A stretch of DNA of 44,921 nucleotides from an uncultured Gammaproteobacteria bacterium (GCA_964527115.1 CAZGPK010000004.1:1-44921), one strand, 5' to 3'; counted from the first letter of the stretch, positions 28,232-44,016 are shown. The notes: generated by a model not told the origin, from the letters alone. Program-made: numbers and translations.

Positions 28232-28237
28232 CCGAAG

Positions 28238-28987: not shown

Positions 28988-29073
28988 GGAGGAGTCGCCT
29001 AGTGGCCCATGGCACAGGTTTGCTAAACCTGCGGGAGAACATCCCGTCGCGGGTTCGAATCCCGCCTCCTCCG
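28988..29073 (+). tRNA. tRNA-Ser(GCT), CCA not encoded
   Basis: GGAGGAGTCGCCTAGTGGCCCATGGCACAGGTTTGCTAAACCTGCGGGAGAACATCCCGTCGCGGGTTCGAATCCCGCCTCCTCCG. Long variable arm, anticodon GCT. Confidence 0.95.
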
Positions 29074-29239
29074 CTTTATGCCTATTTTACCATGTAATTT
29101 TAATGGTATAGCTACAAACCCCTAACCATCCGCGTAATTTTTTAGGAAAATTATTTATATCAAGTTAACAGCCTGTAACACGCCAAAACCCAATTTTTTA
29201 ATAATTGCTATTTTCCCCAAAAAGTGGCAAATTATCTTG

Positions 29240-29914
29240 ATGGCAAGATTCATTACCAAGCAACAAATCCTAGATTTGGTTAAGGACCAACACTTTGAAA
29301 CTGAGGATAACTTTAGAGATTATTTGGCACCTAAATTAGCTGAATTATTTAAAGTCAATAAAGAGCAAGTTGAAACTGAACCGGTAACTACTAGTTTTGA
29401 CGGAACCTTATCAAATCGTGCCGATATTATCATCAGAAATGAAGATGGAAATTTTAAGAAAGCACTAATAGTTTTTGAATTGAAATTATCAAAAAGTGTC
29501 GACAAATTTAATAATGGTGATTACACTGGAACAGATAAGCAGCTCAAAAAATATTGCCAAGATGTAAGAGCACCTTATGGAGTTTTATTAACCGAAAACT
29601 TTTGTGCAATTTATCGAAATAAATACTTTTCTTATGACCAAGAACCAAAAAGAGGTCTAAAAAATATAATTCCAACTATTGAAGGAATTGAAAATATTAT
29701 GGCTAAAGAAGCCTTAGTTGATTTTTTCTTTTTAAACAAATCATTAAAATATATTTACTATCTAATATTTGTCTTAATCATTTACTTTCTTTTTGCTGTT
29801 TCTCTGGAAAAGGCATTTGGTCTGTGGATTTCAATGTTAATATCTTTTTTAATTAGCATTATTGGTGGGGGTGTGATTGCCATTATTTTTAAGGTTAGGA
29901 AGACTTTTGATTAG
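29240..29914 (+). CDS. HsdR-N-like PD-(D/E)XK nuclease domain fused to two C-terminal TM helices
   Basis: E...RADIIIR...IVFELK...QLKKYC...YGVLL, then hydrophobic YIYYLIFVLIIYFLFAV and LWISMLISFLISIIGGGVIAIIF. Confidence 0.72.
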   Translation: MARFITKQQILDLVKDQHFETEDNFRDYLAPKLAELFKVNKEQVETEPVTTSFDGTLSNRADIIIRNEDGNFKKALIVFELKLSKSVDKFNNGDYTGTDKQLKKYCQDVRAPYGVLLTENFCAIYRNKYFSYDQEPKRGLKNIIPTIEGIENIMAKEALVDFFFLNKSLKYIYYLIFVLIIYFLFAVSLEKAFGLWISMLISFLISIIGGGVIAIIFKVRKTFD

Positions 29915-31235
29915 GTTTAATTGACAATTCCTTATTGTGTAGAATAAATCGGGTTTTTATGGCCGACATTACCTTAAGTCTTTCTTCGGCGGTTCCAAAT
30001 TTCAGAATGTAGATTAAATATTCCTTAATTTTATCCTTGCCAATATGATTAAAGGCATCATAGTCCAATTCGATTAATTTTCCGCTAATAATTTCCTGGT
30101 TTAGGACTTCATTTCTTAATCTATGAAATTTATCGATATCCTGTTTTAAATACTGAGCCAGCTCACTCTCGTGTAATTTAATTTCATCGATGTGAATGAC
30201 CAGCTGTTGGATTAGATCCTCTTCACTGATATAGGGTTCATCGCAGTCGTAATCTATGTGTCTACCACAGTGGTAGTAGATATACTTTCTGACTCCACCC
30301 GACTTATTCCTTTTATATTTTTCCTCAGCTGTTACCCTTTCACCACAAGTCCCACAATAGCATAGACTTCTAAAGGGAAAGACTTTTTTATTCCATTCCC
30401 TATCTGGAGCAACAAGTTGAAGCTGAACTTTGTCAAATAATTCCTTGGTTATTAATGGCTCATGTTTACCTTTATAGATCTTGCCGCCGAATTCAAACTC
30501 GCCGTAATAAAATGTATTCTTTAAGGTTGTATAAACTTTACTTAAGGCCAGTGGTTTACCGCTTCTGGTAGTAAATTCAATTCTGTCCAGCCACTTTTTT
30601 ATAGTTTTACCACTATGGCCTTCAACTCCAACTCGGCTAAACATCTGCCTTATTATCGGAGCCCTATCGTTGTCAATTTCAACAAAACTTATCCGGTTGT
30701 AATTCATCACATTGCGATAGCCAAGTGGTGCCATGTTAGGTCGCCATCCTGCTTCACATTTTGCTCTCATGCCTCGTCTAACATTGATACCTCGATTGTC
30801 GTTTTCCAACTTTGCCTGTGAGCATAAAATCATAAGTAAGAATTTCTCATTTGGATTATTTGAAAATGATTGAGAGAAGGTTCTGATTGTCTGAAGTTTT
30901 CCCTGATCCATTAAGTCGACCAGTGTCCCTAAATCTCCTGCATTTCTACTTAATCTGTCAGGTGCCCACGTTAATATGGCATCAAATTCTCCAGCTCTAA
31001 TGTCGATTAGTAATTGGTTGAAGACTGGCCTTAGCCCTGATGATTTGGCTGAGTGGCTTTCTTGCCGGATTTCTTTTATAAATAAGTTTTCTCTTTCGGC
31101 CAGTGTTTTCATCTCATTGATTTGAGATTCAATTGACATGGCCTGACGTTCATCTGATTCCGATGATTTTCTGGCGTATAGGCAGTATCTTACTTTCTTT
31201 ATTTCCTGTATCTTTCCATCTTCTTTCTTTTTCAT
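29895..31235 (-). CDS. Large serine recombinase (resolvase, recombinase and Zn-ribbon domains)
   Basis: YARKS catalytic motif, SAKSSGLRP, DRLSRN, APLGY, YYG...GKHEPLI, CGTCG...YYHC...C. ATG 31235 is 6 nt after TACAGT. Confidence 0.94.
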   Translation of the reverse strand: MKKKEDGKIQEIKKVRYCLYARKSSESDERQAMSIESQINEMKTLAERENLFIKEIRQESHSAKSSGLRPVFNQLLIDIRAGEFDAILTWAPDRLSRNAGDLGTLVDLMDQGKLQTIRTFSQSFSNNPNEKFLLMILCSQAKLENDNRGINVRRGMRAKCEAGWRPNMAPLGYRNVMNYNRISFVEIDNDRAPIIRQMFSRVGVEGHSGKTIKKWLDRIEFTTRSGKPLALSKVYTTLKNTFYYGEFEFGGKIYKGKHEPLITKELFDKVQLQLVAPDREWNKKVFPFRSLCYCGTCGERVTAEEKYKRNKSGGVRKYIYYHCGRHIDYDCDEPYISEEDLIQQLVIHIDEIKLHESELAQYLKQDIDKFHRLRNEVLNQEIISGKLIELDYDAFNHIGKDKIKEYLIYILKFGTAEERLKVMSAIKTRFILHNKELSIKPNQKSS

Positions 31236-31296
31236 GACACAACTGTACCGCAAGGTTTATGGAAGTCTAGGAGATGTTTTAGTGGTAAAATAGGGC

Positions 31297-31968
31297 GTGA
31301 AAGCGTTTATAGTATCAATATTTTTAGCAATAACAGGGTTTTTTGGATTAAACAAACCACAACAAGCTTCTTTGTCTATTCCAACTCTCGAACCGTCACC
31401 CACCATAGAAATAATTGAGGAAATAATATCTCCGACTTTAGCTCCCACAGTTATCCTATCCGCTAAACCTACTATATCGAAGCCTAAAAGTTCGATTAAT
31501 GAAGAAATACTTAAAAAATTCTTTGGAATTTCAGATATAAACCGAGCTAATTTAATTTTGAAGAATCCTGATGAACTTAAAAAATATGAGCAAGAATTTT
31601 ATCAAAAATTTTTAACTTACCCGGTTCCGAGAATAACAATTATCAATAATACTCAGTTAATTGGAATGCCAAGTAAGGATGGCGTGAAAATTTGTAATGG
31701 TGGTCAACTTAAAAAACTTTATGACGAGATTACTCCCATTGAAAAACAAGCCTATTTTGAAAAGATGGATTACGATTGCCACCATAATTCTAGAATGCAA
31801 GAAACTGCAGAATGTCAGGAATGGAGGAGAATAAACGATGTAGACAGAGTTCAGCCAACAAAAGGATCTATTGATGATGAAATCGCTGCCTTACAAAAAA
31901 AGATAAGCGAATATGCAAATAAGAAGAATGTATATGACGACCTGATAGTTAAATACTGTCAAAACTAG
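31297..31968 (+). CDS. Secreted hypothetical protein
   Basis: Signal peptide, SPT-rich linker, helical domain with four Cys. TGgTAAAAT just upstream of the GTG. Confidence 0.75.
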   Translation: MKAFIVSIFLAITGFFGLNKPQQASLSIPTLEPSPTIEIIEEIISPTLAPTVILSAKPTISKPKSSINEEILKKFFGISDINRANLILKNPDELKKYEQEFYQKFLTYPVPRITIINNTQLIGMPSKDGVKICNGGQLKKLYDEITPIEKQAYFEKMDYDCHHNSRMQETAECQEWRRINDVDRVQPTKGSIDDEIAALQKKISEYANKKNVYDDLIVKYCQN

Positions 31969-31982
31969 TATAAAAAATTGTT

Positions 31983-33803
31983 TTATCTCCAAGTTTGATC
32001 GTTTAGTCTTTTGGCAATCGCTTCCTGTTCATTATATAAGCCCTGATCTTCATCTATCCAACGATTTTCTTCGGCACTTAACCATTGATTTGACTGCATT
32101 TTAGAAACTATTTTCTCCATTCTTCCAATTCTGATATTCATTATTTCTATCAATCTGTCGGCATCTTTTTTATTATTCTCGTAAGTGGATGAATAACTGC
32201 GAATATTTTCCCAACTTGGTCTTATCTCCTTCAGTCTACTAAGAGATGCGGCCCAACTGTCAATTACTTCTTTTGAATAATTAGGTGGAATATATCCGGC
32301 AAAGTGAAGAACCATTACCTGTGAAGGGCAACCATTTAACATCCCTTCTACTTCAGTAATACCTACTTCTTGGTAATTTTTGTTTAATAAAAATTCCTTG
32401 GTCTCTGGAAATTCAAATTGATATTCTATTAACTCTTCAGCATCGTAATATCCCACGTTTAGTGCTTCGCCATAAGTAGTATTTGAATATTTTGCATCTC
32501 TCATCGCCTTTGTCATTGGGTATCCGCTTTTGGTCGCCTCGTATGAAAAATCGTCAAATTTTAGCATTACCTCACCCCTTCGAGCTGCTGAATCTTCAAG
32601 TTTGGGTTGATATTTTAATGCTTTTACTTTTGCTTCAGCCCTTTTTTCATTTAGAAGGTCTAAATATTTTTGCCTATCAATTTTGATTTTTGACGATTCT
32701 TCTAGATCAAGTGTTGTATCGCGCCAATTTTTATCAAAAGTTCCTTTTTGTTTTTCGAAAGGCAAAACATGATTAATATCGTTAATATTGATAAACCCAA
32801 TTTCCCTCGAATCGCCACTTCCTTTTCTATTATCGCCCATGACAAAAACCGAATTCTCTGGGACAGTAACTTTTTGGCATTCTTTCAAATAGGATTCGCC
32901 AAAGGTTGAATGTGCTTGGGCGGTGTAAGGCTCTTTTTGGGGTTGATCATTCAGATAGACAATGCCATTTTTTAATTCAATAGTATCTCCGGGCATGCCA
33001 ATAATTCTTTTCACCCACCCTGAAGGTCGACCATAAAGTTTTTCCGTTAACTCTTTTGTTTTGTCATTAAGTAAAACGACAATATCACCCCGTTCTAATT
33101 CATGGTTAAGGTATCTTTTGCCTAAAAGAATTAGCCCGTTGGGATATCGAAACATTCCTGGTGATCCGACAATTTCTTTGGATTGTTCTTCCGGAGTTTT
33201 TCCTTGACCCTTTGGAAAGGTGGGTGACATAGACCCTGTTCCCGATACCGTGATAATTTCGGGATTATATCCTAAACCATCTTTCGTCATCTGAAATGCC
33301 AGATAGTATCCCAAAATCCATATCGGTAAAATTATTCCAATAACAGCCAAAGAAGAAAATACTCGAGAAACTACCTGACCTACACCCTTTGGTCTAAGTA
33401 AAGAAATTTTAAATCTATCGGTTTTTATTTTTTCTCTTAGTTCTTTGATTCCAGTAGAGCGATATAGCAAGATCAAAGGGAAAAATGCTAAATTAAAACA
33501 AAGTTTAAAGATTGATCCGATAAAATTACCTTTTTTGTTATGAACTCCTTTTTTTGATTTGTCTCCTTTAGCAATTTTTATGGCAATCATTAAAACAAAT
33601 ATGCAAAAGGCAATGATACCTACACCCATCGATGAAAGCATTGCTATTAAAAAGGAAGTAGAGTTGCCAAATGGAGTATCTTGTACAGTACCTTTAAACC
33701 AGTTTGTAGCTAGACCAATACTGGCGGTAAAAATAGCGATACACAATAACCAGAGAATTATAAAAAACTTAATAAATGCGGATGATTTTTCCTTCTTTTC
33801 CAC
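31983..33803 (-). CDS. lepB: Signal peptidase I fused to a C-terminal CAP-like domain and helical tail
   Basis: Several TMs. GSMSPT (catalytic Ser), RGDIVV, VKRIIGMPGD (catalytic Lys), VMGDNRKGSGDSR, then LLNEKR...KLEDSAARRG...YGEAL...LLNKNYQEVGI. GTG 33803 is 6 nt after TATAAT. Confidence 0.85.
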   Translation of the reverse strand: MEKKEKSSAFIKFFIILWLLCIAIFTASIGLATNWFKGTVQDTPFGNSTSFLIAMLSSMGVGIIAFCIFVLMIAIKIAKGDKSKKGVHNKKGNFIGSIFKLCFNLAFFPLILLYRSTGIKELREKIKTDRFKISLLRPKGVGQVVSRVFSSLAVIGIILPIWILGYYLAFQMTKDGLGYNPEIITVSGTGSMSPTFPKGQGKTPEEQSKEIVGSPGMFRYPNGLILLGKRYLNHELERGDIVVLLNDKTKELTEKLYGRPSGWVKRIIGMPGDTIELKNGIVYLNDQPQKEPYTAQAHSTFGESYLKECQKVTVPENSVFVMGDNRKGSGDSREIGFININDINHVLPFEKQKGTFDKNWRDTTLDLEESSKIKIDRQKYLDLLNEKRAEAKVKALKYQPKLEDSAARRGEVMLKFDDFSYEATKSGYPMTKAMRDAKYSNTTYGEALNVGYYDAEELIEYQFEFPETKEFLLNKNYQEVGITEVEGMLNGCPSQVMVLHFAGYIPPNYSKEVIDSWAASLSRLKEIRPSWENIRSYSSTYENNKKDADRLIEIMNIRIGRMEKIVSKMQSNQWLSAEENRWIDEDQGLYNEQEAIAKRLNDQTWR

Positions 33804-33893
33804 AAGTTGATTATATCCAAAAAAAGACACTTTTGTTTATTCTTACATCTATCAACCAAGGTAATTTATTCTTTTTTTTAGAAAAATTTAAAG

Positions 33894-34334
33894 TTAATTA
33901 AGCTTCGAAACTGGCCAGTTATCTTTTACACCTTCAGTGGCAATTTTTATCCATTCGTCTTTAGATACGTTATATTCATTTAAAATTTCCTGTCGATATT
34001 TTTCTTCAAGTTCTTGAACTAAATCAGCGTTTGGCTCAACATTCTTTTTTGCTTGCTCAGCGTCTACATTATATAAACTAGTAGGGTATTTTTCCTCAGC
34101 TTCTTTCATGGCTTTATCTTCTGCTTGGGCAATTTTGAAAAATATTTCTTGTTTTTCTTCTAAATTTCTCTCGCTTGCTTGGAATATCTCGGTGGCATTG
34201 TTCATACCATCTTGAAAACCTTTTTGAGAGTCACCGTTTTTAGAACCAATGATTATTGTCAAAACAATTAAAATAATTATTCCGGAAATTATTTTGTGCC
34301 TTAAAAACCAGTTTTTTTGTATATCTTTTTCCAT
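33894..34334 (-). CDS. Single-TM exported hypothetical protein
   Basis: KNWFLRHKIISGIIILIVLTIIIG anchor, helical C-terminal domain. Confidence 0.75.
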   Translation of the reverse strand: MEKDIQKNWFLRHKIISGIIILIVLTIIIGSKNGDSQKGFQDGMNNATEIFQASERNLEEKQEIFFKIAQAEDKAMKEAEEKYPTSLYNVDAEQAKKNVEPNADLVQELEEKYRQEILNEYNVSKDEWIKIATEGVKDNWPVSKLN

Positions 34335-34362
34335 ATATTTATTAACTATTAATTTGACACAA

Positions 34363-34427
34363 TGCTAACTGAAACTTAGCAGGAAGTCAAGGCTAAATCG
34401 TGCCTATTTGCTAAGTATGGCTTAGTA
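34363..34427. promoter_or_regulatory. Two palindromic operators TGCTAA-N7-TTAG(C/T)A
   Basis: 34363-34381 TGCTAActgaaacTTAGCA and 34409-34427 TGCTAAgtatggcTTAGTA, in the divergent region before the XRE gene. Confidence 0.6.
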
Positions 34428-34460
34428 GAGTTTGAATCTGCCTAAACATACCCTTTGGGT

Positions 34461-34676
34461 ATGAGAAAAAATGCCAAATTAACTAAAACTATTTGTAAAA
34501 GAATTAAAAAATACCGTGGTGATCTTGGTCTGACTCAAGAAGATTTAGCAGAAAAAGTTGGGGTTAGCCGGGTTTATATAGGCTACGTTGAGCAAGGTCG
34601 CAACACACCGTCATTAGAGATTTTAGAAAAGATTGCTAAAGCTCTAAAATCGAGATTGGCTGACCTCATCGAATAA
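34461..34676 (+). CDS. XRE-family HTH regulator
   Basis: RIKKYRGDLGLTQEDLAEKVGVSRVYIGYVEQGRNTPSLEILEKIAKAL. Confidence 0.93.
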   Translation: MRKNAKLTKTICKRIKKYRGDLGLTQEDLAEKVGVSRVYIGYVEQGRNTPSLEILEKIAKALKSRLADLIE

Positions 34677-34679
34677 GAT

Positions 34680-36185
34680 TCAACTAGGCCAGCGGTGATG
34701 AAATAATTTGTGTACCCGGCTATAGTTGCTATCATACAGACTGCCTTTTGTGTCAACAACTATAACATTCGACTCTGGTTTGTTATCTAGCTCTAATATT
34801 TTCAGAATCAGTAAGGAGAATGCATCGGCGAGATCATCATGTTTTTCAATTCCGAAACCCACCAACTGACCAATTAATTCTTCTGCTCCATGTCTTGGAA
34901 ACAGAATTTTTCCCTGCTCAATTAAGTGGGTGACCAAGGCCAATCTAGAGCGTTTATCTTGTCCGTTTACTTTAACTCCCTCACAATGGATGTTGCGATC
35001 ATTAAGTTGTTGGAGAATTGCTTGCTGATACCCCACGTCTTCGACAAATATTTTAGATTCCACGCCAAGAGTAGCTGATAATTCCTCAATCTTTTGGACA
35101 GTTTGAGGAAAAGTAAGTTTTTCGTTAATTGGATTTGGATAAATATATATTTTAAGGTCTTCTTTTCTCCCAAAGATTTTTGAAATAATCATGGAGGTAA
35201 AGTCAGAGGACTCTTTTTGGGTAATTGCTAAGTCAATGCCAACACCAATATATCGAAAATCTTTAATGTCTCTGTCAATTGTTGTGTAATATTGAATCCA
35301 CTCGGGGTGAACTAGTCTATCGGCATCGGAAATAATTTTAATCAAGTATTCCCGATACCAAGCAGAGTCAGATCCGATCATTCCTTTAAGTTTTTCGATT
35401 GAATCTATATCAGGAAATTTCCCCGGCCACGATGGTATACCAGTATCGTTTAATATTGGGTATGAGAGAAACTTGCCTGAAAGTTGGTTATTGTCGATTA
35501 GAGACTTAAGTCTCATTAGAAGACAATCCTCATGAAGCAAATTTCCGACAACCACAAATTTTGTATTAGTATCCCCAATTGGCAAGATTTCCCCAGTAAA
35601 CCAATTAGTGGTTTTATCGCGGCCTTCCTTAGTCTTGACACTATTTAAGTCTTCAACATCATCACAAATTACCAAATCTGGCCTATATTGCCCATGACGA
35701 AGTCCTCGGACACTCTGCTCAGTGGAAGCGATAGATATTCGAGCATCAAAGTTGGAGAGGACTATAGTATTTACTCCCCACTCATCACTTGTTTCTTGAA
35801 ATGGACCAATATCGCTCATTAATAATGCGTTAGCCTGCAACTCCCTCTTAATATTCGATAGATGTAGTTTGGCTTGGGATTGAGTTTGACTAACGATTAA
35901 TATAAATTTTTTTTGTTGACAGCCAGTAATTGCCCATATAGGGTAGGATAAACTCATTAAAGTCGATTTTCCTGACCCTCGGAAAGCAATTAATACTGCC
36001 AGTCTTAAGGCGGTATCTTCTGTTATGGAAAACATTTCCCGATGGAAATCAGCAAAGGGATATCCCAGATAATGTCCAAAATAGATACTAAAAAACAAAC
36101 AGTGATTTTGACGAGTCATTGCTCTTCTGACAGATCGTTTCCTTAAAATCTCTGAAAGATCTTGTTTGCTCAACATATTAGTCAT
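34680..36185 (-). CDS. Phage terminase large subunit-like protein
   Basis: Walker A AFRGSGKS, VRG...RPDLVICDDVE (Walker B), VVGN coupling motif, nuclease GIDLA...SDFT...VEDVGYQ...HDDLADA. Confidence 0.88.
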   Translation of the reverse strand: MTNMLSKQDLSEILRKRSVRRAMTRQNHCLFFSIYFGHYLGYPFADFHREMFSITEDTALRLAVLIAFRGSGKSTLMSLSYPIWAITGCQQKKFILIVSQTQSQAKLHLSNIKRELQANALLMSDIGPFQETSDEWGVNTIVLSNFDARISIASTEQSVRGLRHGQYRPDLVICDDVEDLNSVKTKEGRDKTTNWFTGEILPIGDTNTKFVVVGNLLHEDCLLMRLKSLIDNNQLSGKFLSYPILNDTGIPSWPGKFPDIDSIEKLKGMIGSDSAWYREYLIKIISDADRLVHPEWIQYYTTIDRDIKDFRYIGVGIDLAITQKESSDFTSMIISKIFGRKEDLKIYIYPNPINEKLTFPQTVQKIEELSATLGVESKIFVEDVGYQQAILQQLNDRNIHCEGVKVNGQDKRSRLALVTHLIEQGKILFPRHGAEELIGQLVGFGIEKHDDLADAFSLLILKILELDNKPESNVIVVDTKGSLYDSNYSRVHKLFHHRWPS

Positions 36186-36595
36186 TGTTTGTCCTCATTG
36201 GTTATAACTGACGTGTCTGGCAATACTGAGGCAAGTTTTAACGCCTTTACGACCAATTCCTCTTGTTCAGGTGTCAATTGCTCGTCATCATGCTTTAATT
36301 TAGCAGTTACTTCAATTCTGTTGGCATAAGCTGGGTGTCGGTGATTAAGCCAGTAGGCTATGGCTGAGAAATTTTTGTCTTTTATGGCCGATATTAGCTG
36401 TGATTCCGCCATTTCATTAATGAGTGACACACCATCACTGATGGCTGTCTCTACCGCCTGGGAAAATTCTGAATCCTCTTTTTTCCAACGATAAAAACTT
36501 GCCCGACCAATACCCGTCTTTTCACACGCAACTTGTATTATTGGTGTTTTCTTAAGTTGCTCGATCAATAATTGTTTATCATTATTTGTTTTCAT
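36182..36595 (-). CDS. HTH protein, putative terminase small subunit
   Basis: IQVACEKTGIGRASFYRWKKEDSEF, AESQL...AIAYWL. Coupled directly upstream of TerL. Confidence 0.72.
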   Translation of the reverse strand: MKTNNDKQLLIEQLKKTPIIQVACEKTGIGRASFYRWKKEDSEFSQAVETAISDGVSLINEMAESQLISAIKDKNFSAIAYWLNHRHPAYANRIEVTAKLKHDDEQLTPEQEELVVKALKLASVLPDTSVITNEDKQ

Positions 36596-37322
36596 ATTTT
36601 TTAAATTTTTTATAACGGTCGACGATAACTTGGCAGTATTCTGGATCAATCTCGACACCTATACATCTTCTTCGAGTTTGCTCACATGCGATTAAACTCG
36701 ACCCCGACCCCAAAAATGGGTCATAGACATAATCACCAATTTGAGAGCTATTGAGAATTAAATGTCGTAGAAGAGATATTGGCTTCATGGTTGGATGGAG
36801 TGGACTTTTGTTAGGCTTGGGAAAAGCCAAAATACTTTTATCTTTGCTTTTAAAGAATTTATGTGTCCCGAACCAGCCATAAGCTATCAGCTCATGCATG
36901 GGGAGGTAATCCATTCGTCCAATCACTGAGTGATTTTTTATCCAAATCAACAGCTGACAAAATTTAAAACCAGAAGTGTCAAGAGCCTTTTTTAAAGCGA
37001 AGATCATTTTGTCGGAGTTAAAAATATAGAAGCTGTTTTTTGGTGCTAAAAATGGTTTAACTACCTCTAGCCATTGTTGAGTAAATAATTGATACGACTC
37101 TTCTGATTGAATCTGATCATTGGCAATAAGTTTTCTAGTTACTTTAGTTTTTAGAAACCCTTTTTTGCCCTCGACCAGACCCACGCCATACGGAGGGTCT
37201 AAAAGCATGAGTGATATTTTTTTGTCGGTTAGCAACTTCTCAACTGACTCTTTATCGGTGGCATCACCACATAAAAGTAGATGATCACCGAGTTCGACAA
37301 TGTCTCCGTTTTTAATTGACAT
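36582..37322 (-). CDS. N6/N4 DNA methyltransferase (beta class)
   Basis: HLLLCGDAT, DPPY, HPTMKP, DPFLGSGSS, EIDPEYC. Confidence 0.93.
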   Translation of the reverse strand: MSIKNGDIVELGDHLLLCGDATDKESVEKLLTDKKISLMLLDPPYGVGLVEGKKGFLKTKVTRKLIANDQIQSEESYQLFTQQWLEVVKPFLAPKNSFYIFNSDKMIFALKKALDTSGFKFCQLLIWIKNHSVIGRMDYLPMHELIAYGWFGTHKFFKSKDKSILAFPKPNKSPLHPTMKPISLLRHLILNSSQIGDYVYDPFLGSGSSLIACEQTRRRCIGVEIDPEYCQVIVDRYKKFKKYENK

Positions 37323-38592
37323 ATTCCACCTCCTTGCCGGTTAGTTGCCTATAGCGAGAAACTATTAAATCGCAAAATATTGGTTCGATCTCAACCATCA
37401 GGCATCTTCGCTTTAGTTGTTCACAACTGCACATAGTCGAACCTGAGCCAGCGAATAAATCTAGGACTGTGTCACCAACTTTGGTACAACGCCTTATGGC
37501 TTTCTCGTGTAAAGTTGGACTTTTTTCGGTCGGATGAGTGTATTCGTTACCTGGTAATCTCTTGACCAACCAGATGTTTAGGAGGTCTAAAATATCGTCT
37601 ATAGTGCGATTGCCCGAACCAATTTCTTTATTCATAATTTCGTTCAAGTTCTTTGGATATTCTGAAATGCTGGGTTGCCCGACAGTTCCATAAATACATG
37701 CTTCATAAGACTTATTAAATGCCACATTTGGCGTTGGTGAAAATCCGTTTTTAATCCATAGACATACTCTCTTGTTTTCGATTCCTATTTCTTTGTATAA
37801 ATCTTGGATCAAACCGATATGGCGTTCGTCATTCCATATAAATACATGGGTATCGGGTTTGGAAATAGCCAGTCCGTTTTGAATTGTTTTTTTTAAAAAC
37901 TCGCGATATTCCAAATCAGTTTTATTATCATCAGTCTTACCTCCATATTTTCCTTTGCCTCCGACACCTTTGTTGTAGTTGAGGTTTATATTGAATGGAG
38001 GGTCAAAATAGGCCATTGATACCGTCTTTTCTGATGTCAGTTTTTGAACTACTTCAAGATCCATACTATTTCCGCAAACTAACATGTGCGGTCCGAGATT
38101 GATAATGTCTCCCAGTTTTGTCTTTGGAAATTTAATCTTCTCGATTTCTTTTAGGGTGTCAAACTCATCTTCATAAGTTTCCAAGTTTTCGTCCCAAATT
38201 TTTGACAAGTCGCTATTGTCAAAACCTACATCCATTAACAATTCAATATCGAGATTTTTCAACGCCTCAAAATCCCACTCTCCGGCACTAACATTGCTTC
38301 TAAGGTTGTACTCTTGGAATTCATCAATCGTTAGTTTTCTACTAGGTACCCTAACATCAATTTCTTCTCCACCTCGGCCTAATAAGAGTAGAACTTTTAT
38401 TCTTTGGTGACCCGCCAGAATTTTGTTGTCAACGTCTATTGCCGGTATTTCTACTAAACCAAACTTCTTCAGACTCTCTTTTAATTTTATCTTTTGAAAA
38501 TCACTTAAAATGCGTGGATTCTTATCGTAGGCAATTAAATCCTTAACTATTCTTTTCTCTGTATGCCAGATTATTTTCCCCAGTTTTTCCAT
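37312..38592 (-). CDS. ParB-like domain fused to an N6/N4 DNA methyltransferase
   Basis: N-terminal YDKNPR...SLKKFGLVE...ILAGHQR (ParB/Srx), then DPPF, HPTEK, DLFAGSGST. GGAGG RBS. Confidence 0.92.
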   Translation of the reverse strand: MEKLGKIIWHTEKRIVKDLIAYDKNPRILSDFQKIKLKESLKKFGLVEIPAIDVDNKILAGHQRIKVLLLLGRGGEEIDVRVPSRKLTIDEFQEYNLRSNVSAGEWDFEALKNLDIELLMDVGFDNSDLSKIWDENLETYEDEFDTLKEIEKIKFPKTKLGDIINLGPHMLVCGNSMDLEVVQKLTSEKTVSMAYFDPPFNINLNYNKGVGGKGKYGGKTDDNKTDLEYREFLKKTIQNGLAISKPDTHVFIWNDERHIGLIQDLYKEIGIENKRVCLWIKNGFSPTPNVAFNKSYEACIYGTVGQPSISEYPKNLNEIMNKEIGSGNRTIDDILDLLNIWLVKRLPGNEYTHPTEKSPTLHEKAIRRCTKVGDTVLDLFAGSGSTMCSCEQLKRRCLMVEIEPIFCDLIVSRYRQLTGKEVEYVN

Positions 38593-38773: not shown

Positions 38774-38974
38774 ATGGTAGATAATCTGGGGGCGCAAATC
38801 TCTGAACTTTTAACCCTAAGAGAGGCTTGTGACATTCTCAAAGTTCATCCCAACACTTTACGCCAATGGGACAAGAAAGGTGTTTTCAAAGCAGTTCGGA
38901 TTGGTATCAAAAAAAGTCTAAGATACCGAAAAGAAGATATAGAAAAATTTATTAATCAAAAATATGGCAAATAA
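38774..38974 (+). CDS. Excisionase/MerR-like HTH DNA-binding protein
   Basis: LLTLREACDILKVHPNTLRQWDKKG...RYRKEDI. TATAAT at 38760-38765. Overlaps the hsdM start. Confidence 0.88.
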   Translation: MVDNLGAQISELLTLREACDILKVHPNTLRQWDKKGVFKAVRIGIKKSLRYRKEDIEKFINQKYGK

Positions 38975-40550
38975 TCACAACCAAAATACCACCAAAGAAC
39001 AAGAACGAACTGAACTTCACCGAGCAATATGGCAAATTGCCAATGATTTAAGAGGTAGTGTTGATGGTTGGGATTTTAAGTCATATGTTTTAGGGATGCT
39101 TTTTTATCGATTTATTAGTGAAAACTTAACTAATTACATCAACGCTGATGAGCGACGCTCTGGGAAAAATGATTTTGATTATGCAGAGCTTTCAGACAAA
39201 GAAGCTGAGTTTGGTCGAGCTGACACCGTTAAAGAGAAGGGTTTTTATATCCTACCCAGCGAGCTTTTCATAAATGTAAGCAAGAGAAGTAAAAATGATT
39301 CTAATCTCAATGAGACTTTATCAACGGTATTTAATAACATCGAGAACTCAGCTAAAGGTGCAGTGAGTGAAGATGATTTAAAAGGCTTGTTTGACGACCT
39401 TGATGTTAATTCTAATAAACTAGGTAATACAGTCGAAAAACGAAACCAAAAATTAGTTAAATTACTAGAATCTATTGGCAACCTTCGACTTGGTAATTAT
39501 TCAGATAATACAATTGACGCTTTTGGTGACGCTTATGAATTTTTGATGACAATGTATGCCTCCAATGCTGGAAAGTCCGGAGGTGAATTTTATACTCCTC
39601 AAGAAGTCAGTGAACTACTTGCCGAAATTACAACTGTTGGCAAAAAAGAAGTTAACAAAGTCTACGACCCCGCTTGTGGTTCGGGTTCACTACTCCTTAA
39701 ATTTTCCAAAGTTCTTGGAAGAGAAAATGTTCGTCAAGGATTTTTTGGTCAAGAAATCAATCTCACCACCTACAATTTGTGTCGTATTAACATGTTTTTA
39801 CACGATATTAATTACAATAATTTTGATGTCGCATTAGGAGATACTCTAATTGATCCCAAACATTGGGATGATGAACCTTTTGATGCAATAGTTTCCAATC
39901 CTCCGTATTCTATTAAATGGGAAGGAGACGCAAATTCGCTCCTTATTAACGATCCTCGTTTCTCACCCGCTGGGGTACTCGCACCAAAAAGTAAGGCAGA
40001 TTTAGCATTTACTATGCATATGCTTTCATGGCTTTCTACTAGTGGAACTGCTGCAATTGTTGAGTTTCCCGGTGTTTTGTATCGGGGCGGTGCTGAACAA
40101 AAAATTCGTAAATATCTGATTGATAACAATTACATTGACACTGTAATTCAATTACCACCAGATCTTTTCTTTGGTACAACAATAGCAACTTGTATAGTGG
40201 TACTAAAGAAAAGTAAAAAAGATAACAAGACATTATTTATTGACGCTTCGGCTGAATTTGTACGAAATGGTAATAAAAATAAATTAAGCGAAGAAAATCG
40301 TAAAAAGATTCTCAACGCCTTTATTAATCGAGAGGATATTGAGTATTTTGCCAAACTTGTTGACAATAAAGACGTTGCAGACAATGATTACAATATTGCC
40401 GTATCTAGCTATGTAATTGCGGAAGATACTCACGAAGTTGTAAACATTACTGAGTTAAATACCAAAATTAGTCAAATAGTTGCTAAACAAAATGAGCTAC
40501 GGATAGCAATTGATGAAATCGTAGCAGATATTGAAGGTACTGACATATGA
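38964..40550 (+). CDS. hsdM: Type I R-M methyltransferase subunit (type IC-like)
   Basis: IWQIANDLRGSVDGWDFK, GEFYTPQEVS, YDPACGSGSLL, SNPPY. Confidence 0.97.
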   Translation: MANNHNQNTTKEQERTELHRAIWQIANDLRGSVDGWDFKSYVLGMLFYRFISENLTNYINADERRSGKNDFDYAELSDKEAEFGRADTVKEKGFYILPSELFINVSKRSKNDSNLNETLSTVFNNIENSAKGAVSEDDLKGLFDDLDVNSNKLGNTVEKRNQKLVKLLESIGNLRLGNYSDNTIDAFGDAYEFLMTMYASNAGKSGGEFYTPQEVSELLAEITTVGKKEVNKVYDPACGSGSLLLKFSKVLGRENVRQGFFGQEINLTTYNLCRINMFLHDINYNNFDVALGDTLIDPKHWDDEPFDAIVSNPPYSIKWEGDANSLLINDPRFSPAGVLAPKSKADLAFTMHMLSWLSTSGTAAIVEFPGVLYRGGAEQKIRKYLIDNNYIDTVIQLPPDLFFGTTIATCIVVLKKSKKDNKTLFIDASAEFVRNGNKNKLSEENRKKILNAFINREDIEYFAKLVDNKDVADNDYNIAVSSYVIAEDTHEVVNITELNTKISQIVAKQNELRIAIDEIVADIEGTDI

Positions 40551-42748
40551 CAGATTTAAAATTAAATGTAAAACTAGAAAATTGTTATGGAATTAAAAAA
40601 CTGAACCATGAGTTTGATTTTTCAAAGTGTCATACTTTTGTAATTTACGCACCAAATGGTGTAATGAAAACTTCCTTTGCAAATACGTTTAGTGATCTCG
40701 CAAATATCAAAGATCCATGTGATCGTGTCGACGATTCTTTAACCTCTATTTATGAAATATTAGATTGTGATAAAAACACACAAATACAGGCCGATTCAAT
40801 TTGTGTTATCGAACCATACAACGAAAAGGCATTTGACTCAGAGGGAAAGGTTCTTATTCTTTTAGCTAACGAGGAAGTTAGAAAAGAATATCTTGATATA
40901 TATTCGGAGTTAGACAAAGAAAAACAGTCATTAATTAAGACTCTTAAAAAAGTTTCTAAAAGCAATAACTGTGAGGCAGAGTTAGTTTCAACATTTTCCA
41001 CAGGGAAAGAAAATATTTTTGAGGTTTTTTTAAAAATATTTGACGACGCACGAAAATTTCCGGAAAAATATGATTTCAAATACAACGTAATTTTCGATCC
41101 ACAAGGAAAAGTTAAAGACTTTTTAAATGATAATAAGAAGCTTTTCACTCAATATTGTGACAAATATAATGATTTGATCAGCAATTCTGATTTTTTTGCC
41201 AAATGTGACGAAACAGTTTTTGGTACAACAGAAGCAAAAAGTCTCAGTGATTCTGTAAAAGGAAATGAATTTTTTTTTGCTGGACATGGACTAAATATAA
41301 AAAAATATGGTATTGTTGGTGATAATAAACTCCTTGAAGAGATTGTAAACAAAGAAATTCAAAAGATATTTAGCGATAAAGACCTTAAGTCAATTTTTGA
41401 TGAAGTAGAAAAAAAACTTAGTGCTAATCTGACTTTGCTTGAATTCAAAAAACTAATTGAAAGGAATCCATCACTAGTAATAAAACTCGCTAACTATGAG
41501 CAGTTTAGAAAAGATGCTTGGTATAGCTTCCTTGGACAAATAGTTAATGAGTTGGATAAGTTGGTTGCTTTATATAAAAGTAAGAGACCGGATATTGAGG
41601 CAATTATTAAAAAAGCGAGCGAACAACAGTCAAGGTGGGAAGACGCAATACAGGAATTTAGTGATCGATTTTTCAATATGCCTTTTACTCTAAGTGTTGA
41701 AAATAAATCTGATGCAATACTCAACACTCAAACACCGACAATTTCTTTTAAATTTAAAGGGAAACCAATTGACAGAAAGAGAATGATAGATGTTTTAAGC
41801 CAGGGTGAGAAAAGAGCTTTTTATATATTAAATGTGATTTTTGAAGTCAAATCTCGACAACTTAGTGGCACAAAGACTTTATTTATTATCGATGATATAG
41901 CCGATTCGTTTGATTATAAAAATAAATACGCAATCATTGAATACTTGCACGATATTTCTAGAGAGCCAAATTTTAACTCCATTGTGATGACTCACAACTT
42001 TGATCTATTCAGGACACTCCAATCAAGAGTGTTAGTAGAACACAAATGGACTAATTCACTCATAGCGGAAAAACTAACAGATGAGATTAATCTAGTTGAT
42101 GCCGGCAGTAAAAATATTACTGACCCTTTCTCTATTTGGAAAAAAGGAGTTCACAACAATGAGAAATATCTTATTGCGTGCATTCCATTTGTTCGCAATT
42201 TGATCGAATATAAAGACAGCCAGAACAATGATTATCGTTTATTAACTCATGCTCTTCACCAAAAAAAGATTGATACTACAAATAATATTAAATCTACGGA
42301 AGATATTTGTATAAGTGATCTAGAACCTATCTTTTCAAGTGTATTATCAATTCCCACATTCACATTTTCCAACAAATCAAAAAAAATTGTTGATATTATC
42401 GATTCTTTAATCACTGATATCAATAATCAGCCCAACTTAGATTCTATTGTTCTTGAAGATAAAATAATTTTAGCTATCGGATCGAGATTAAAGGCTGAAA
42501 GATACATGTGGTCTAAGGTTACAAATCAGGATGAAATTACTGGAAACCAGACGGGGTTATTGTATCAAAGATACAAGGACGAGTTTTCTGGCGATCATAG
42601 CCATAAAGATAAAATACGTATTCTTGAAAACGTCAATATTATGACTCCAGAAAATATCCACCTAAATTCATTTATGTATGAGCCTATTTTAGATATGGGA
42701 ATAGATGAGTTAAAGCATTTGTATACTGAAGTTGAAAAATTGAATTAA
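40547..42748 (+). CDS. ABC/SMC-like ATPase (PrrC/RloC-like architecture) inside the hsd operon
   Basis: Walker A variant YAPNGVMKTS, long helical insert, LSQGEKRA signature, IIDDIADSFD Walker B/D-loop, MTHN switch, C-terminal ~230-aa domain. Confidence 0.8.
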   Translation: MTDLKLNVKLENCYGIKKLNHEFDFSKCHTFVIYAPNGVMKTSFANTFSDLANIKDPCDRVDDSLTSIYEILDCDKNTQIQADSICVIEPYNEKAFDSEGKVLILLANEEVRKEYLDIYSELDKEKQSLIKTLKKVSKSNNCEAELVSTFSTGKENIFEVFLKIFDDARKFPEKYDFKYNVIFDPQGKVKDFLNDNKKLFTQYCDKYNDLISNSDFFAKCDETVFGTTEAKSLSDSVKGNEFFFAGHGLNIKKYGIVGDNKLLEEIVNKEIQKIFSDKDLKSIFDEVEKKLSANLTLLEFKKLIERNPSLVIKLANYEQFRKDAWYSFLGQIVNELDKLVALYKSKRPDIEAIIKKASEQQSRWEDAIQEFSDRFFNMPFTLSVENKSDAILNTQTPTISFKFKGKPIDRKRMIDVLSQGEKRAFYILNVIFEVKSRQLSGTKTLFIIDDIADSFDYKNKYAIIEYLHDISREPNFNSIVMTHNFDLFRTLQSRVLVEHKWTNSLIAEKLTDEINLVDAGSKNITDPFSIWKKGVHNNEKYLIACIPFVRNLIEYKDSQNNDYRLLTHALHQKKIDTTNNIKSTEDICISDLEPIFSSVLSIPTFTFSNKSKKIVDIIDSLITDINNQPNLDSIVLEDKIILAIGSRLKAERYMWSKVTNQDEITGNQTGLLYQRYKDEFSGDHSHKDKIRILENVNIMTPENIHLNSFMYEPILDMGIDELKHLYTEVEKLN

Positions 42749-42753
42749 CTAAT

Positions 42754-44016
42754 ATGACAAAACACCAAAACAAAATCGAAAAACTAATTTTGAATCTATG
42801 TCCAAAAGGTGTGAGATTCAAGACATTAGGAGTATTGGGTGATTTTTATGGCGGATTGTCTGGTAAGAGCAAGGAAGATTTTAGTGATGGTAATGCGAAA
42901 TATATAACCTATATGAATATTGCATCTAATATTGCTGTTAATACAGACATTAATACTTTAGTCAAAGTGGATAAAGAGGAACATCAAAATAAAATTGAAT
43001 ATGGTGATGTTTTGTTTACTGGGTCATCAGAAACTCCCGACGAGGTTGGTATATCATCAGTTTTGACAAAGAAAATAGATGAACCATTGTACTTAAATAG
43101 CTTTTGTTTTGGTTTTCGTCTACACGATAAAAATATGTTTCTGCCAGATTTTTTTAAATATTTGTTTAGAGATGATGAGATTAGAAAACAAATTATAAAA
43201 ACAGCAAGTGGAGTAACTAGATTCAATGTTTCAAAAAAGCGTTTTGCAAAAATTAGGATTCCGATTCCTCCGCTTGCAGTTCAAGAAGATATTGTCAAAA
43301 TTCTTAATAGTTTTACAGAGTTAGAAGCAGAGTTAGAAGCAGAGTTAGAAGCAGAGTTAGAAGCAAGGAAGAAGCAGTATATTTATTACAAAGAACATTT
43401 ATTGTCGTTTACTGATGGTGTCAGGATGGTGCCTCTAAAAGAAATCTGTGATATTGGTGATGGTTTACACGGGACTCCAAAATATACTTATTTAGGAGAA
43501 TATTTATTTATTAATGGTAATAACTTAAAAAATGGACATATAGTTTCCGAAAAGAAAACTAATAAAGTTGATGAGCAGGCATATAAGCTACACGGTATAT
43601 CATTCAAACCAAACAAAACTGTTTTAATGTCGATAAATGGAACAGTTGGAAGTGTAGCGAGATTTAATAATGAAAAAATTGTTCTTGGTAAATCAGTTGC
43701 CTACTTTAACATTAATTCTGAATCTATCAGCGTAAACTACTTGTTTTACTATTTGCAAACTAATCAGGCAAAACAATATTATGAATTCCAGAAAACTGGC
43801 TCAACAATTAAAAACTTAGGACTAAAAGCGTTGAGAGAATTTCAAATTCCTGTTCCTCCTATTAATGTACAAGAAAAAATTGCATCAACTCTAGAGAAAT
43901 TCAATAATCTTGTTAATGATATCTCCATTGGTTTACCCGCAGAGTTGAAAGCCAGGAGACAACAATATGAATATTATCGAAATAAATTATTAACTTTTAA
44001 AGAATATGCCAACTGA
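42754..44016 (+). CDS. hsdS: Type I R-M specificity subunit
   Basis: Two TRDs, IPIPPLAVQ / IPVPPINVQ, central ELEA repeats, C-terminal GLPAELKARRQQYEYYRNKLLTF. Confidence 0.96.
   Translation: MTKHQNKIEKLILNLCPKGVRFKTLGVLGDFYGGLSGKSKEDFSDGNAKYITYMNIASNIAVNTDINTLVKVDKEEHQNKIEYGDVLFTGSSETPDEVGISSVLTKKIDEPLYLNSFCFGFRLHDKNMFLPDFFKYLFRDDEIRKQIIKTASGVTRFNVSKKRFAKIRIPIPPLAVQEDIVKILNSFTELEAELEAELEAELEARKKQYIYYKEHLLSFTDGVRMVPLKEICDIGDGLHGTPKYTYLGEYLFINGNNLKNGHIVSEKKTNKVDEQAYKLHGISFKPNKTVLMSINGTVGSVARFNNEKIVLGKSVAYFNINSESISVNYLFYYLQTNQAKQYYEFQKTGSTIKNLGLKALREFQIPVPPINVQEKIASTLEKFNNLVNDISIGLPAELKARRQQYEYYRNKLLTFKEYAN
43318..43365 (+). repeat. 12-bp tandem repeat x4 (GAGTTAGAAGCA, ELEA) in the hsdS spacer helix
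   Basis: Four perfect copies read directly from the sequence. Confidence 0.95.

Follow-up and report, generated by a model that had tools for sequence, protein, structure and literature searches.

The window, a stretch of 44,921 nucleotides that makes up the whole of contig G000:C4, carries a member of a small mobile-island family that is widespread in the ultra-small bacteria of the CPR/Patescibacteria. The best explanation for this integrative island family, to which we assign a probability of roughly one half, is a phage satellite that brings a whole terminase and none of the shell. The features of the window that bear on this reading are listed below.

28988..29074 (+): tRNA-Ser(gct), ARAGORN; its 3' end points toward the recombinase end of the element, the integration side
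29052..29143: junction of ~90 nt beginning in the tRNA 3' end; candidate att region (putative function)
29237..29914 (+): 225-aa ORF between tRNA and recombinase; weak HSDR_N_2 match (Pfam E = 0.0014, below cut-off)
29895..31253 (-): large serine recombinase (integrase), Pfam and PHROG
31983..33830 (-): cargo, 615-aa multi-TM membrane protein with S26 signal-peptidase domain (Peptidase_S26 8e-29)
33894..34334 (-): cargo, 146-aa N-terminally anchored protein
34455..34676 (+): XRE-type HTH regulator (HTH_3 4.8e-18)
34680..36185 (-): TerL, full length (phrog_38 and Terminase_6C)
36182..36658 (-): small HTH protein in TerS position (TerS-like; weak TerS PHROGs)
36582..37322 (-): second N6/N4 DNA methyltransferase (MTase; N6_N4_Mtase 3e-32)
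37312..38592 (-): fusion of ParB-like N-terminus and N6/N4 DNA methyltransferase (N6_N4_Mtase 2.4e-26)
38774..38974 (+): HTH_17 excisionase-like gene, divergent from the core operon
38964..44920 (+): type I RM defence cargo (hsdM, PDC-S46 gene, hsdS, hsdR N-terminus); the contig end cuts hsdR

The original prediction had placed an element at 29895-38592, and the open reading frames it gave there were borne out by their positions; its limits were probably too narrow, as the 225-aa ORF and the divergent HTH_17/type I RM operon are likely to belong to the same island. The four core genes, described as co-oriented and overlapping, do overlap on the minus strand, by 11, 77 and 4 bp, and the XRE gene is convergent with TerL and ends 3 bp from its stop, the geometry that had been reported. 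Also as predicted, the recombinase is co-oriented with the core and starts 3.4 kb past TerL with only exported-type cargo between them (the S26-domain multi-TM protein and the anchored protein), and the element sits at tRNA-Ser, located 820 bp beyond the recombinase stop. Across the element, G+C drops from ~0.44 to 0.31-0.38 and GC skew shifts from ~-0.3 to near 0. The contig terminates within hsdR, so that the element's other end lies out of view here; the remaining hsdR sequence was not found in the assembly searched.

An intact large terminase

TerL was identified by matches to phrog_38 (2.9e-74) and Terminase_6C (26 bits, cut-off 22.6). The Walker A (RGSGKST, residues 69-75) and Walker B (DLVICDDVED, residues 170-179) stretches are conserved, and 40 columns were invariant among 43 sequences, including K73, D175/D176, D318, E382 and D450/D451/D454; the ATPase and RNase H-like motifs that had looked intact in the window are shared by the family, Walker and acidic nuclease residues alike. 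An AlphaFold model (pLDDT 87.1) gave the TerL proteins of PhiV-1 (7.5e-17), D6E and HK97 as top Foldseek matches, its C-terminus resembled the nuclease domains of G20c and SPP1 in the fold search, and the family profile matched T7 gp19 at 6.6e-8. Sequence and model thus predict an N-terminal ASCE ATPase, a C-terminal RNase H-like nuclease and a large-terminase fold.

The suggested dN/dS analysis of TerL indicated strong purifying selection (0.011-0.055 in the 12 close pairs, out of 16, that had a finite dS), under which the protein is held catalytically intact. Among the 52 matches listed for 46 TerL-bearing genomes, 51 had an open frame and the other contained a single TGA. In a tree for which the root was assumed, a branch with 100% support splits 74 portal-less TerLs from four portal-linked ones, and the portal-less TerLs appear to form a single lineage. 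Two tandem intact TerL paralogues were found in six loci and in two genomes of the phylum sample; this counts against a simple packaging role, since such a role does not predict paralogues.

The TerS-like protein and the methylases

The gene at 36182-36658 shares 4 bp with the beginning of TerL and fits TerS in position and size. Eight TerS PHROGs matched its product weakly (2e-8 to 7e-4; best phrog_4102, 2.2e-8), and a Pfam HTH_Tnp_1_2 match fell below its cut-off. The model was all-helical (pLDDT 82), with a best Foldseek E-value of only ~1 and Sf6 gp1 at probability 0.54, and the family profile had no relative among PDB sequences. We refer to the protein as TerS-like, an assignment that leans on the weak PHROG matches.

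The ParB-like N-terminus of the fusion MTase was matched by PHROGs (phrog_620, 3.9e-19) without a Pfam match. The protein also matched phrog_498 (1.4e-75) and has kept its NPR, GHxR, DPPF and FAGSGST stretches. A second MTase was found in 24 related loci. For methylation as a 'self mark' in packaging, the analysis offers gene linkage as its one support, and linkage of MTase and TerL is also present in the portal-bearing relatives L098 and L099; because these share the MTase-TerS-TerL module, the methylase link is probably older than the loss of capsid genes.

A conserved core in CPR genomes

A survey of TerL neighbourhoods, as originally proposed, was made on 92 loci picked with peptide patterns from the window's TerL, a sample biased to its relatives for that reason. 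By BLAST, TerL was present in all 92 loci, the TerS-like gene in 79, MTase genes in 79 and a serine recombinase in 65. A co-oriented recombinase lies downstream of TerL in 64 loci: it abuts TerL in 22 (gap at most 217 bp, no ORF), follows a gap of 0.7-1.9 kb holding one to three small ORFs in 26, and follows a gap of 2.4-9.4 kb in 16. The portal-less core recurs in dozens of loci, and what comes next after close TerL homologues is the recombinase, not the portal that would have spoken against the prediction.

The conserved core spans ~5 kb and consists of a ParB-like/MTase gene (sometimes with a second MTase), the TerS-like HTH gene, TerL and the large serine recombinase; variable cargo sits between TerL and recombinase and also upstream, behind the divergent HTH_17 gene. 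This architecture marks a conserved family and is not a local decay product. In a phylum sample of 401 genomes, 46 had a window-type TerL. The pairwise identity values for the four core proteins show only a weak correlation (rho 0.10-0.38), so the core modules appear to have been reshuffled and not inherited as one rigid unit.

Recombinase and integration site

The serine recombinase matched Resolvase (1.3e-20), Recombinase (4.1e-14) and Zn_ribbon_recom (4.8e-9), all above Pfam cut-offs, as well as the phrog_95 integrase (1.9e-66); with all three domains present, it is predicted to be an integrase-type large serine recombinase. In 11 related loci, the recombinase stop is followed after 95-260 bp by a tRNA (Ser, Gln or Glu), always in the same relative orientation, and not one of these 11 had a tRNA upstream. 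The tRNA type tracks the recombinase tree with three changes, a number equally low in 4 of 500 shuffles. A position beside a tRNA is characteristic of the family, and the recombinase occupies the end nearest to it.

The ~90-nt junction is 73% identical to a stretch beside tRNA-Ser(cga) in genome G014, and its sequence is present twice in contig G026:C15. G014 and the window share ~72% nucleotide identity over 1983 bp that include the recombinase and the 225-aa ORF, and their host flanks reach just 46% protein identity. As the ORF travels with the recombinase in this comparison, it is probably part of the element.

Cargo and regulators

Hydrophobic segments were found in the 615-aa S26-domain protein. 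The 146-aa anchored protein had zero Pfam or PHROG matches; it was matched by BLAST to a 170-aa ORF of locus L024 that is a member of family F5, and it did not cluster into F5 itself. This family recurs adjoining the XRE gene in 14 loci, and one member matches DUF4352 at 9e-21. The XRE gene is present in 29 of the 92 loci. The HTH_17 gene (HTH_17 2.1e-13, phrog_66 1.2e-9) occupies the same position in 14 loci, and its product is a candidate directionality factor or regulator. Together with the RM genes that follow, it forms an operon upstream of, and divergent from, the ParB-MTase gene. The operon encodes a type I RM system (N6_Mtase 1.1e-114, Methylase_S 6.6e-37, HSDR_N 1.7e-46) and includes the PDC-S46 gene at 40547-42748 (1.4e-232).

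Type I RM genes also adjoin the core in four relatives (L029, L069, L085 and L091). The long inserts between TerL and recombinase encode CopA-type ATPase, DsbD/cupredoxin, DsbA, M56 peptidase, MFS and HlyD/MacB proteins, and the cargo of the longer inserts serves metal resistance, efflux and defence. Upstream genes of relatives include an S24 repressor and an SMODS cyclase, and an AbiEii-like AAA_21 was among their cargo families.

Mobility of the core

Loci L033 and L036 have only a 5.1-kb core in common, at 92.6% nucleotide identity between unlike flanks, and in a wastewater run TerL-TerS-MTase was found at 32 differences over 2908 nt, behind another upstream flank. The core has thus moved between lineages. 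Locus L032, which holds two large serine recombinases, closes as a circle of 17,290 bp with a 412-codon frame spanning the joint, and no structural match was found on it. Logan contigs of four runs contained no credible excision joint for the window's copy, and depth was flat.

Virion and replication genes

Pfam and PHROG scans found no portal, capsid, tail or replication gene among the window's genes, in agreement with the first reading of the sequence. The genome-wide virion search covered the PF04860 portal and PF05065 capsid families. Neither was matched in G000 (89% complete); five other carrier genomes had no PF04860 match, and one of them has a PF05065 match, ~100 kb from the element. 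The PF04860 portal was found in 13 of the 401 phylum genomes and in one of the 46 that bear TerL (G051, on a different contig).

Five portal-type loci supplied 30 proteins encoded after TerL; for 29 of them no homologue was found in portal-less loci or G000, and the remaining one gave two weak matches. When 98 cargo ORFs were grouped, no structural family was among the top 25, and many cargo ORFs carry no annotation. Up to the contig end, and for these two Pfam families, the portal and HK97-fold capsid of a tailed prophage (Caudoviricetes) were absent; the family is one without virion genes. No replication family was found among the window's genes, and the conserved genes of relatives are partly unannotated (e.g. 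a ~250-aa gene upstream of the MTase).

Comparison with known elements

The TerS of PICIs and SaPIs redirects DNA into helper capsids. PICIs as a rule have tyrosine integrases, use the helper's TerL and, like P4-like satellites, possess a replication module. Similar to PICIs and SaPIs, the island is small and integrated; it encodes an integrase and repressor-type regulators, carries accessory or defence cargo, and has a packaging gene of its own but neither tail genes nor a full virion set. In contrast to PICIs, the family combines a large serine recombinase with ParB-MTase genes and a complete TerL, and a replication module (primase or rep, origin) was not recognised. Only TerS or MCP is mentioned for satellites in the accessible text of two studies (PMC9618062; 10.1101/2020.12.28.424599). 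The cf-PICIs are satellites that, like the island with its TerS-like gene, bring both terminase subunits. According to the accessible text of a third study (10.1101/2022.09.08.507074), they also make capsid, portal and head-completion proteins and depend on the helper for tails alone, whereas the search of the island turned up neither a portal nor a capsid gene. The literature searched held no published satellite class with TerL but without capsid genes.

Tycheposons and marine VEIMEs, as far as the accessible descriptions go, are likewise tRNA-associated integrative elements with cargo, some with large serine recombinases and some with a single packaging gene and thought to ride phage capsids; the window's copy and 11 loci resemble them in lying next to a tRNA gene with the recombinase on that side. 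Unlike the island, they are described there as having mostly tyrosine recombinases, replication genes and terS or MCP at most, with TerL named as a presumed helper function. The portal-bearing IMG/VR phage contigs L098 and L099 share the order MTase fusion, small gene, TerL, and their TerL proteins are 35-43% identical to the window's. In these contigs a PF04860 portal gene (1.5e-69 in L098) comes after TerL, with further large ORFs in the same direction (of 248 and 412 aa in L098; the scan of post-TerL genes in both contigs covered the portal alone), whereas island-family TerL precedes recombinase or cargo. SCC-type cassettes (e.g. SCCmec) resemble the island in that large serine recombinases, either one or a pair, carry cargo into a fixed site on the chromosome. 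They are not known to possess a terminase, and their target is a gene instead of a tRNA.

Possible roles of the island

Small size, repressors, defence cargo and a gene of excisionase type are reminiscent of known satellites, and the MTase-TerS-TerL module of portal-bearing relatives also speaks for a satellite; the missing excision joint and flat depth in the four Logan runs, the lack of a recognised replication module or of a published class with this make-up, the weak TerS matches, the reshuffled core modules and the tandem TerLs speak against it. Hijacking of helper-phage capsids is our best guess for how the island moves. The recombinase, perhaps with the HTH_17 protein, would excise and integrate the island, which XRE or S24-type repressors would keep silent. 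On induction, TerS and TerL would cleave the methylated DNA of the island itself and drive it into the procapsids of a helper, possibly a relative of the portal-bearing phages with the same module.

That the window contains a minimal integrative element, equipped with a TerS and a TerL of its own but devoid of virion genes, and not a decayed prophage, had been proposed from the start and is supported by the survey, the dN/dS values and the portal-less carriers. Prophage remnants are often met with, and G+C is low across the region, but ordinary prophage decay with chance retention of the packaging genes is already contradicted, and hardly credible, given one gene order in 64 loci over many CPR lineages, selection on a TerL whose frame is open in nearly all listed matches, a single portal-less lineage, and near-identical cores in unlike contexts (L033/L036, the wastewater run). 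A complete temperate phage, its structural genes past the contig end or too divergent, is improbable. The contig does stop inside hsdR, many ORFs of relatives lack a Pfam or PHROG match, and 13 related contigs are listed as viral in IMG/VR; yet relatives with 10 kb on either side show host genes or cargo and no structural genes, the unit common to L033 and L036 is just 5.1 kb, the L032 circle has no structural match, 45 of 46 carriers lack the PF04860 portal, and the recombinase abuts TerL in 22 loci. It is also unlikely, though less so, that the terminase has been repurposed for a capsid-free job. TerS and TerL might compete for, or cut, an invader's concatemers and procapsids while the methylases mark host and island DNA; alternatively, island DNA might be cut to unit lengths and transferred by vesicles, competence-pilus uptake or cell-to-cell contact. 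Retention of the core in genomes without portal or capsid, the surrounding defence cargo (type I RM, PDC-S46, SMODS, AbiEii-like AAA_21), the tandem paralogues, unusual for a packaging motor, and the very tight MTase-TerL linkage (79/92 loci) would fit such a job. Neither TerL nor TerS matched a PADLOC model, however, ATPase and nuclease residues are both invariant as for a true translocating motor, the module also occurs in portal-bearing relatives, and a TerL that works without a capsid is, to our knowledge, unprecedented.

A further reading, which we hold tentatively and at somewhat less than even odds, is that the islands are an undescribed class of mobile element whose heritable core joins a complete terminase holoenzyme to cognate methylases and a serine integrase and lacks any virion gene, spreading as a 'terminase-only' satellite in the empty procapsids of unrelated helpers or by capsid-independent use of the motor. 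Such a class would possibly be the commonest integrative element of CPR, with TerL in ~1 in 9 sampled genomes. The portal-less terminase islands suggest a new route for DNA between CPR cells. Within an undescribed class of this kind, sub-lineages would have evolved paired TerL paralogues.

Gene Content of the Element

Every gene named in the original prediction, which had proposed a capsid-less integrative element combining methylases and a terminase, was borne out by the ORF listing and family scans. The features are given below.

Features of the element and its surroundings (window positions, strand, description)
28988–29074, tRNA-Ser(gct), beyond the recombinase
29237–29914, +, 225-aa ORF, beyond the recombinase on the tRNA side
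29895–31253, −, large serine recombinase with Resolvase, Recombinase and Zn-ribbon domains
Downstream of TerL, 615-aa multi-TM protein with an S26 peptidase domain
Downstream of TerL, 146-aa membrane-anchored protein
34455–34676, XRE gene, convergent with TerL and ending 3 bp from its stop
34680–36185, −, TerL, 501 aa (phrog_38, 2.9e-74; Terminase_6C over the cut-off)
36182–36658, −, helix-turn-helix protein in the TerS position, 158 aa (ORF listing, family scans)
36582–37322, −, second methylase, 246 aa (ORF listing, family scans)
37312–38592, −, fusion of a ParB-like domain and an N6/N4 DNA methylase, 426 aa (methylase, 2.4e-26; ParB-like phrog_620, 3.9e-19, in PHROGs only)
Upstream of the fusion, divergent, HTH_17 excisionase-like gene
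Upstream of the fusion, divergent, type I restriction-modification operon, hsdR truncated by the sequence end
40547–42748, 733-aa P-loop protein between hsdM and hsdS (PADLOC candidate defence family PDC-S46, 1.4e-232)

The four genes from the ParB–MTase fusion to TerL overlap by 11, 77 and 4 bp. In the element region G+C falls from about 0.44 to 0.31–0.38, and GC skew moves from about −0.3 to near zero. Low G+C (0.37–0.39) was also seen before the tRNAs, at 25000–28000, where two CAP-domain secreted proteins are encoded that may belong to host or island. Type I operons beside the core of three related loci (L029, L069 and L091) likewise have additional genes placed between hsdM and hsdS. The proposed extension to a second att site could not be made: the window is already the entire contig C4 of a genome of 719,575 bp in 17 contigs (estimated 89% complete), and the rest of hsdR was not found in this assembly by a ResIII search, so that the far end of the element is out of view. 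Low-G+C ends of contigs C17, C12, C9 and C1 carried unrelated genes and no remainder of hsdR.

Assignment of the Terminase Subunits

An AlphaFold model of TerL, built on 43 homologues, reached a mean pLDDT of 87. Best matches of this model in Foldseek were full-length large terminases, those of PhiV-1 (7.5e-17), D6E and HK97, and at the level of single domains it matched the ATPases of T4 and P74-26 and the nucleases of G20c and SPP1; the family profile also matched T7 gp19, and a search of the PDB with the TerL sequence alone gave no match. In the alignment of 43 sequences (viewed also with 78), 40 columns were invariant, among them the lysine of Walker A, both acidic residues of Walker B and those of the nuclease. 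By these matches and residues, TerL is a real, intact terminase and is predicted to be catalytically complete. Among phage genomes TerL matched 422 records, each at less than 60% identity; of the 25 matches listed, none exceeded 30%. On plasmids it matched phage-plasmid terminases only, all below 35%. For the helix-turn-helix protein, position, size, the HTH and eight low-scoring TerS PHROG matches point to a putative TerS, an assignment weaker than that of TerL; comparison with the PDB by sequence and by profile returned nothing useful, and a Foldseek search with its model gave no match better than an E-value of about 1.

Two tandem full-length TerL genes were observed at six related loci (L034, L079, L088, L094, L095 and L096), and further pairs at G217:C5:87882–90918 and G264:C1:69920–72824. 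The copies are 53–56% identical to each other, the same copy is 80–85% identical between L034 and L094, and both copies retain the Walker A/B and nuclease residues. On the sequence evidence, the pair arose by an old duplication, and both copies have stayed intact. A reading as split genes or as an alternative genetic code was rejected, the ORFs being two full-length paralogues.

Conservation of the Island Architecture

Related loci were collected by TerL pattern-plus-tblastn scans, which gave 79 loci from species-representative genomes and 13 from IMG/VR at 35–75% identity. BLAST of the window proteins against all ORFs found TerL in 92 of the 92 loci, the TerS-like protein in 79, the methylases in 79, the serine recombinase in 65, XRE in 29 and HTH_17 in 14. 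The recombinase lies downstream of TerL and co-oriented in 64 loci; the gap between the two is at most 217 bp and free of ORFs in 22 of these, 0.7–1.9 kb with 1–3 small ORFs in 26, and 2.4–9.4 kb in 16. Long inserts carry genes for a CopA-type ATPase, DsbD/cupredoxin, DsbA, an M56 peptidase and efflux proteins of the MFS and HlyD/MacB types; among the genes upstream of the core in relatives are those for S24 repressors and for a SMODS cyclase. The expected recurrence of the MTase–TerS–TerL–recombinase layout was thus observed, a portal following TerL in five loci only (L083 and L098–L101; L098 portal, PF04860, 1.5e-69). The island architecture is a family trait, and we hold the family-level description with considerable confidence.

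In 13 loci (e.g. L011:6794–7540) a conserved gene of family F8, encoding about 250 aa, lies directly upstream of the ParB–MTase gene; it has no Pfam or PHROG match and is not present in the window copy. Other unannotated families fill this slot in further relatives. The F8 gene is a candidate for a missing replication or regulatory function.

Absence of Virion Genes

Profile searches of the window's genome with PF04860 and PF05065 gave no match. Five other carrier genomes had no PF04860 portal, and a PF05065 capsid match was seen once among them, ~100 kb from the element. In an evenly drawn phylum sample of 401 genomes, this TerL was present in 46 genomes (42 of 320 genera), and of the 52 matches listed for these carriers 51 had an open frame; a portal was present in 13 genomes, and a single genome had both, on different contigs. 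Twenty-nine of the 30 post-TerL proteins of the five portal-type loci had no homologue among the ORFs of portal-less loci or the six-frame ORFs of the window's genome, and the remaining one (181 aa) had two weak matches. A scan of 98 cargo ORFs returned restriction, methylase, transporter and housekeeping families and no structural family among the 25 commonest of 125 (PHROGs) and 112 (Pfam) families, beyond which rare structural singletons are possible.

Selection and Exchange between Lineages

Nei–Gojobori estimates were made for 16 close pairs, 12 of which had finite dS; TerL dN/dS was 0.011–0.055 in these 12 and 0.011–0.047 in the seven pairs with dS below 1.1, usually the lowest among the core genes. 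TerL is thus under purifying selection, and these values, together with a recombinase downstream of TerL in 64 loci, uphold the earlier view that the element is not a decayed prophage. A tree of 78 TerLs was built by a quick maximum-likelihood method, with an assumed root and a sample biased toward relatives of the query TerL; in it a branch with 100% SH-aLRT separated the four portal-linked from the 74 portal-less sequences.

MAGs whose titles name different CPR lineages can carry near-identical TerLs. What L033 (Falkowbacteria) and L036 (Uhrbacteria) have in common is exactly the 5.1-kb core, which starts 0.5 kb before the methylase and runs to the recombinase end, at 92.6% nucleotide identity; the flanks cannot be aligned. 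A wastewater run contained the window's TerL–TerS–MTase segment with 32 differences over 2908 nt, and the upstream part of that contig does not resemble the window. Pairwise identities of the core proteins showed weak rank correlation (rho 0.10–0.38), and some close TerL pairs have divergent recombinases, which argues that modules are exchanged between elements. Co-evolution of the core genes was set aside as support at these rho values.

Integration Site and Circular Form

Eleven loci have a tRNA gene (Ser, Gln or Glu) 95–260 bp past the recombinase stop, always on the opposite strand, and no tRNA was found upstream of the core in any locus. The window tRNA-Ser follows the same pattern at 820 bp. 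On the recombinase tree the tRNA type changes three times, as low a number arising in 4 of 500 shuffles, a test that overstates independence because related rows share labels. In G014, a genome of another family, the 225-aa ORF and recombinase recur at ~72% nucleotide identity beside a different tRNA-Ser, the neighbouring host gene having only 46% protein identity. A conserved stretch of ~90 nt from the tRNA 3' end onward marks the junction, of which the window's assembly holds no second copy. Direct repeats of at least 13 bp shared by the tRNA side and the sequence upstream of the MTase, sought in 14 loci, were either none or A+T-rich chance strings; their lack is expected of serine recombinases and leaves the far boundary of the element undefined.

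At a further locus, L114 (G026:C15; 5380–5453 and 12194–13140), two direct ~90-nt junction copies are separated by 7.6 kb, and no tRNA is close by; the segment between them contains a 39-codon recombinase remnant and a homologue of the 225-aa ORF. It may be an island that has decayed or been exchanged and has kept both ends. Comparison of window 19003–19088 and 28237–29074 with L115 7413–8390 shows that a block of tRNA-Ser(gct), a 186-aa gene and tRNA-Arg(gcg) is inverted in the window relative to G014, so that the element adjoins tRNA-Ser(gct) in the window and tRNA-Ser(cga) in G014. Either an inversion between tRNA-Ser genes or the use of two different tRNA-Ser targets for integration could account for this.

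One relative, the 17,334-bp contig L032, has an exact, non-repetitive terminal overlap of 44 bp, and its closing yields a 17,290-bp circle with a 412-codon frame across the joint. Besides the core and cargo, the circle encodes two large serine recombinases, of 576 and 582 aa, and has an ORF with a polymorphic-toxin domain (Ntox44); family scans gave no structural match in it, and such an assembly could alternatively result from a tandem duplication. No credible excision joint was found in Logan contigs of four public runs, where contig depth was flat and all joints listed had sides of 20–29 letters from other organisms or repeats.

Proposed Mechanism and Alternatives

The results show a conserved, mobile, tRNA-associated island with a selected TerL and defence and resistance cargo, and without virion genes. 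In the reading that we prefer, the recombinase, perhaps with the HTH_17 protein, would integrate and excise the island, which XRE or S24 regulators would hold repressed. TerS and TerL would then load island DNA into the procapsids of a helper phage related to the portal-bearing contigs with the common MTase–TerS–TerL module. We put the probability of this whole chain at about one half.

Its main rival is a terminase with a capsid-independent role, in defence or DNA processing. The defence gene neighbourhood and the tandem intact TerL paralogues, in six loci and two more genomes, speak for such a role, which we consider possible and rather unlikely. That a complete phage is concealed beyond the contig end is poorly supported and decidedly less probable, and a decaying remnant, for which support is equally poor, seems very improbable.

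Comparison with Known Satellites

With packaging into helper procapsids as the preferred reading, PICI-type satellites would be the closest functional likeness. PICIs bring TerS only, and cf-PICIs bring the whole head. The element, unlike PICI-type satellites, carries TerL, ParB–MTase genes and a serine integrase, and no replication module, expected of such satellites, was recognised in it. It is not a cf-PICI, because capsid and portal are missing, nor is it a prophage. Integration beside tRNA genes and cargo carriage are common to the element and to tycheposons and VEIMEs. Literature consulted includes PMC9618062, 10.1101/2020.12.28.424599 and 10.1101/2024.03.08.584096; in passages of the first two, tycheposons and VEIMEs have terS or MCP at most, and TerL is named a helper function. 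No description of the architecture was found in full-text literature, subscription journals and supplementary tables being outside the scope of the search. We rate the element as a satellite-like integrative island with an architecture apparently undescribed in the searched literature. If the packaging model is true, the island would bridge the gap between PICIs and cf-PICIs, as a satellite that owns its motor and borrows its shell; a motor working without a shell would be a new use of terminases.

Hosts of the Islands

Much of bacterial diversity belongs to the CPR/Patescibacteria, which have tiny genomes and few known routes of gene exchange. A conserved island in roughly a tenth of sampled genomes would be a main vehicle of horizontal gene transfer in the CPR, moving restriction-modification, CBASS-type and metal-resistance genes between lineages. 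Virus-detection pipelines call such islands viruses (13 IMG/VR contigs), which inflates CPR prophage counts.

Nearly all records with related loci are titled as CPR/Patescibacteria lineages, and several Saccharibacteria MAGs are among the carriers. Five carrier genomes titled Gammaproteobacteria or Pseudomonadales (G002 and G436–G439; loci L019, L016, L051, L021 and L040) are 1.1–1.6 Mb in size. Ribosomal protein L30, the absence of which is a CPR hallmark, was not found in these five and was present in 13 of 14 control genomes; the titles are doubtful and the genomes CPR-like because L30 is missing. Two further carriers (L052 and L083) are MAGs titled Pacearchaeota.
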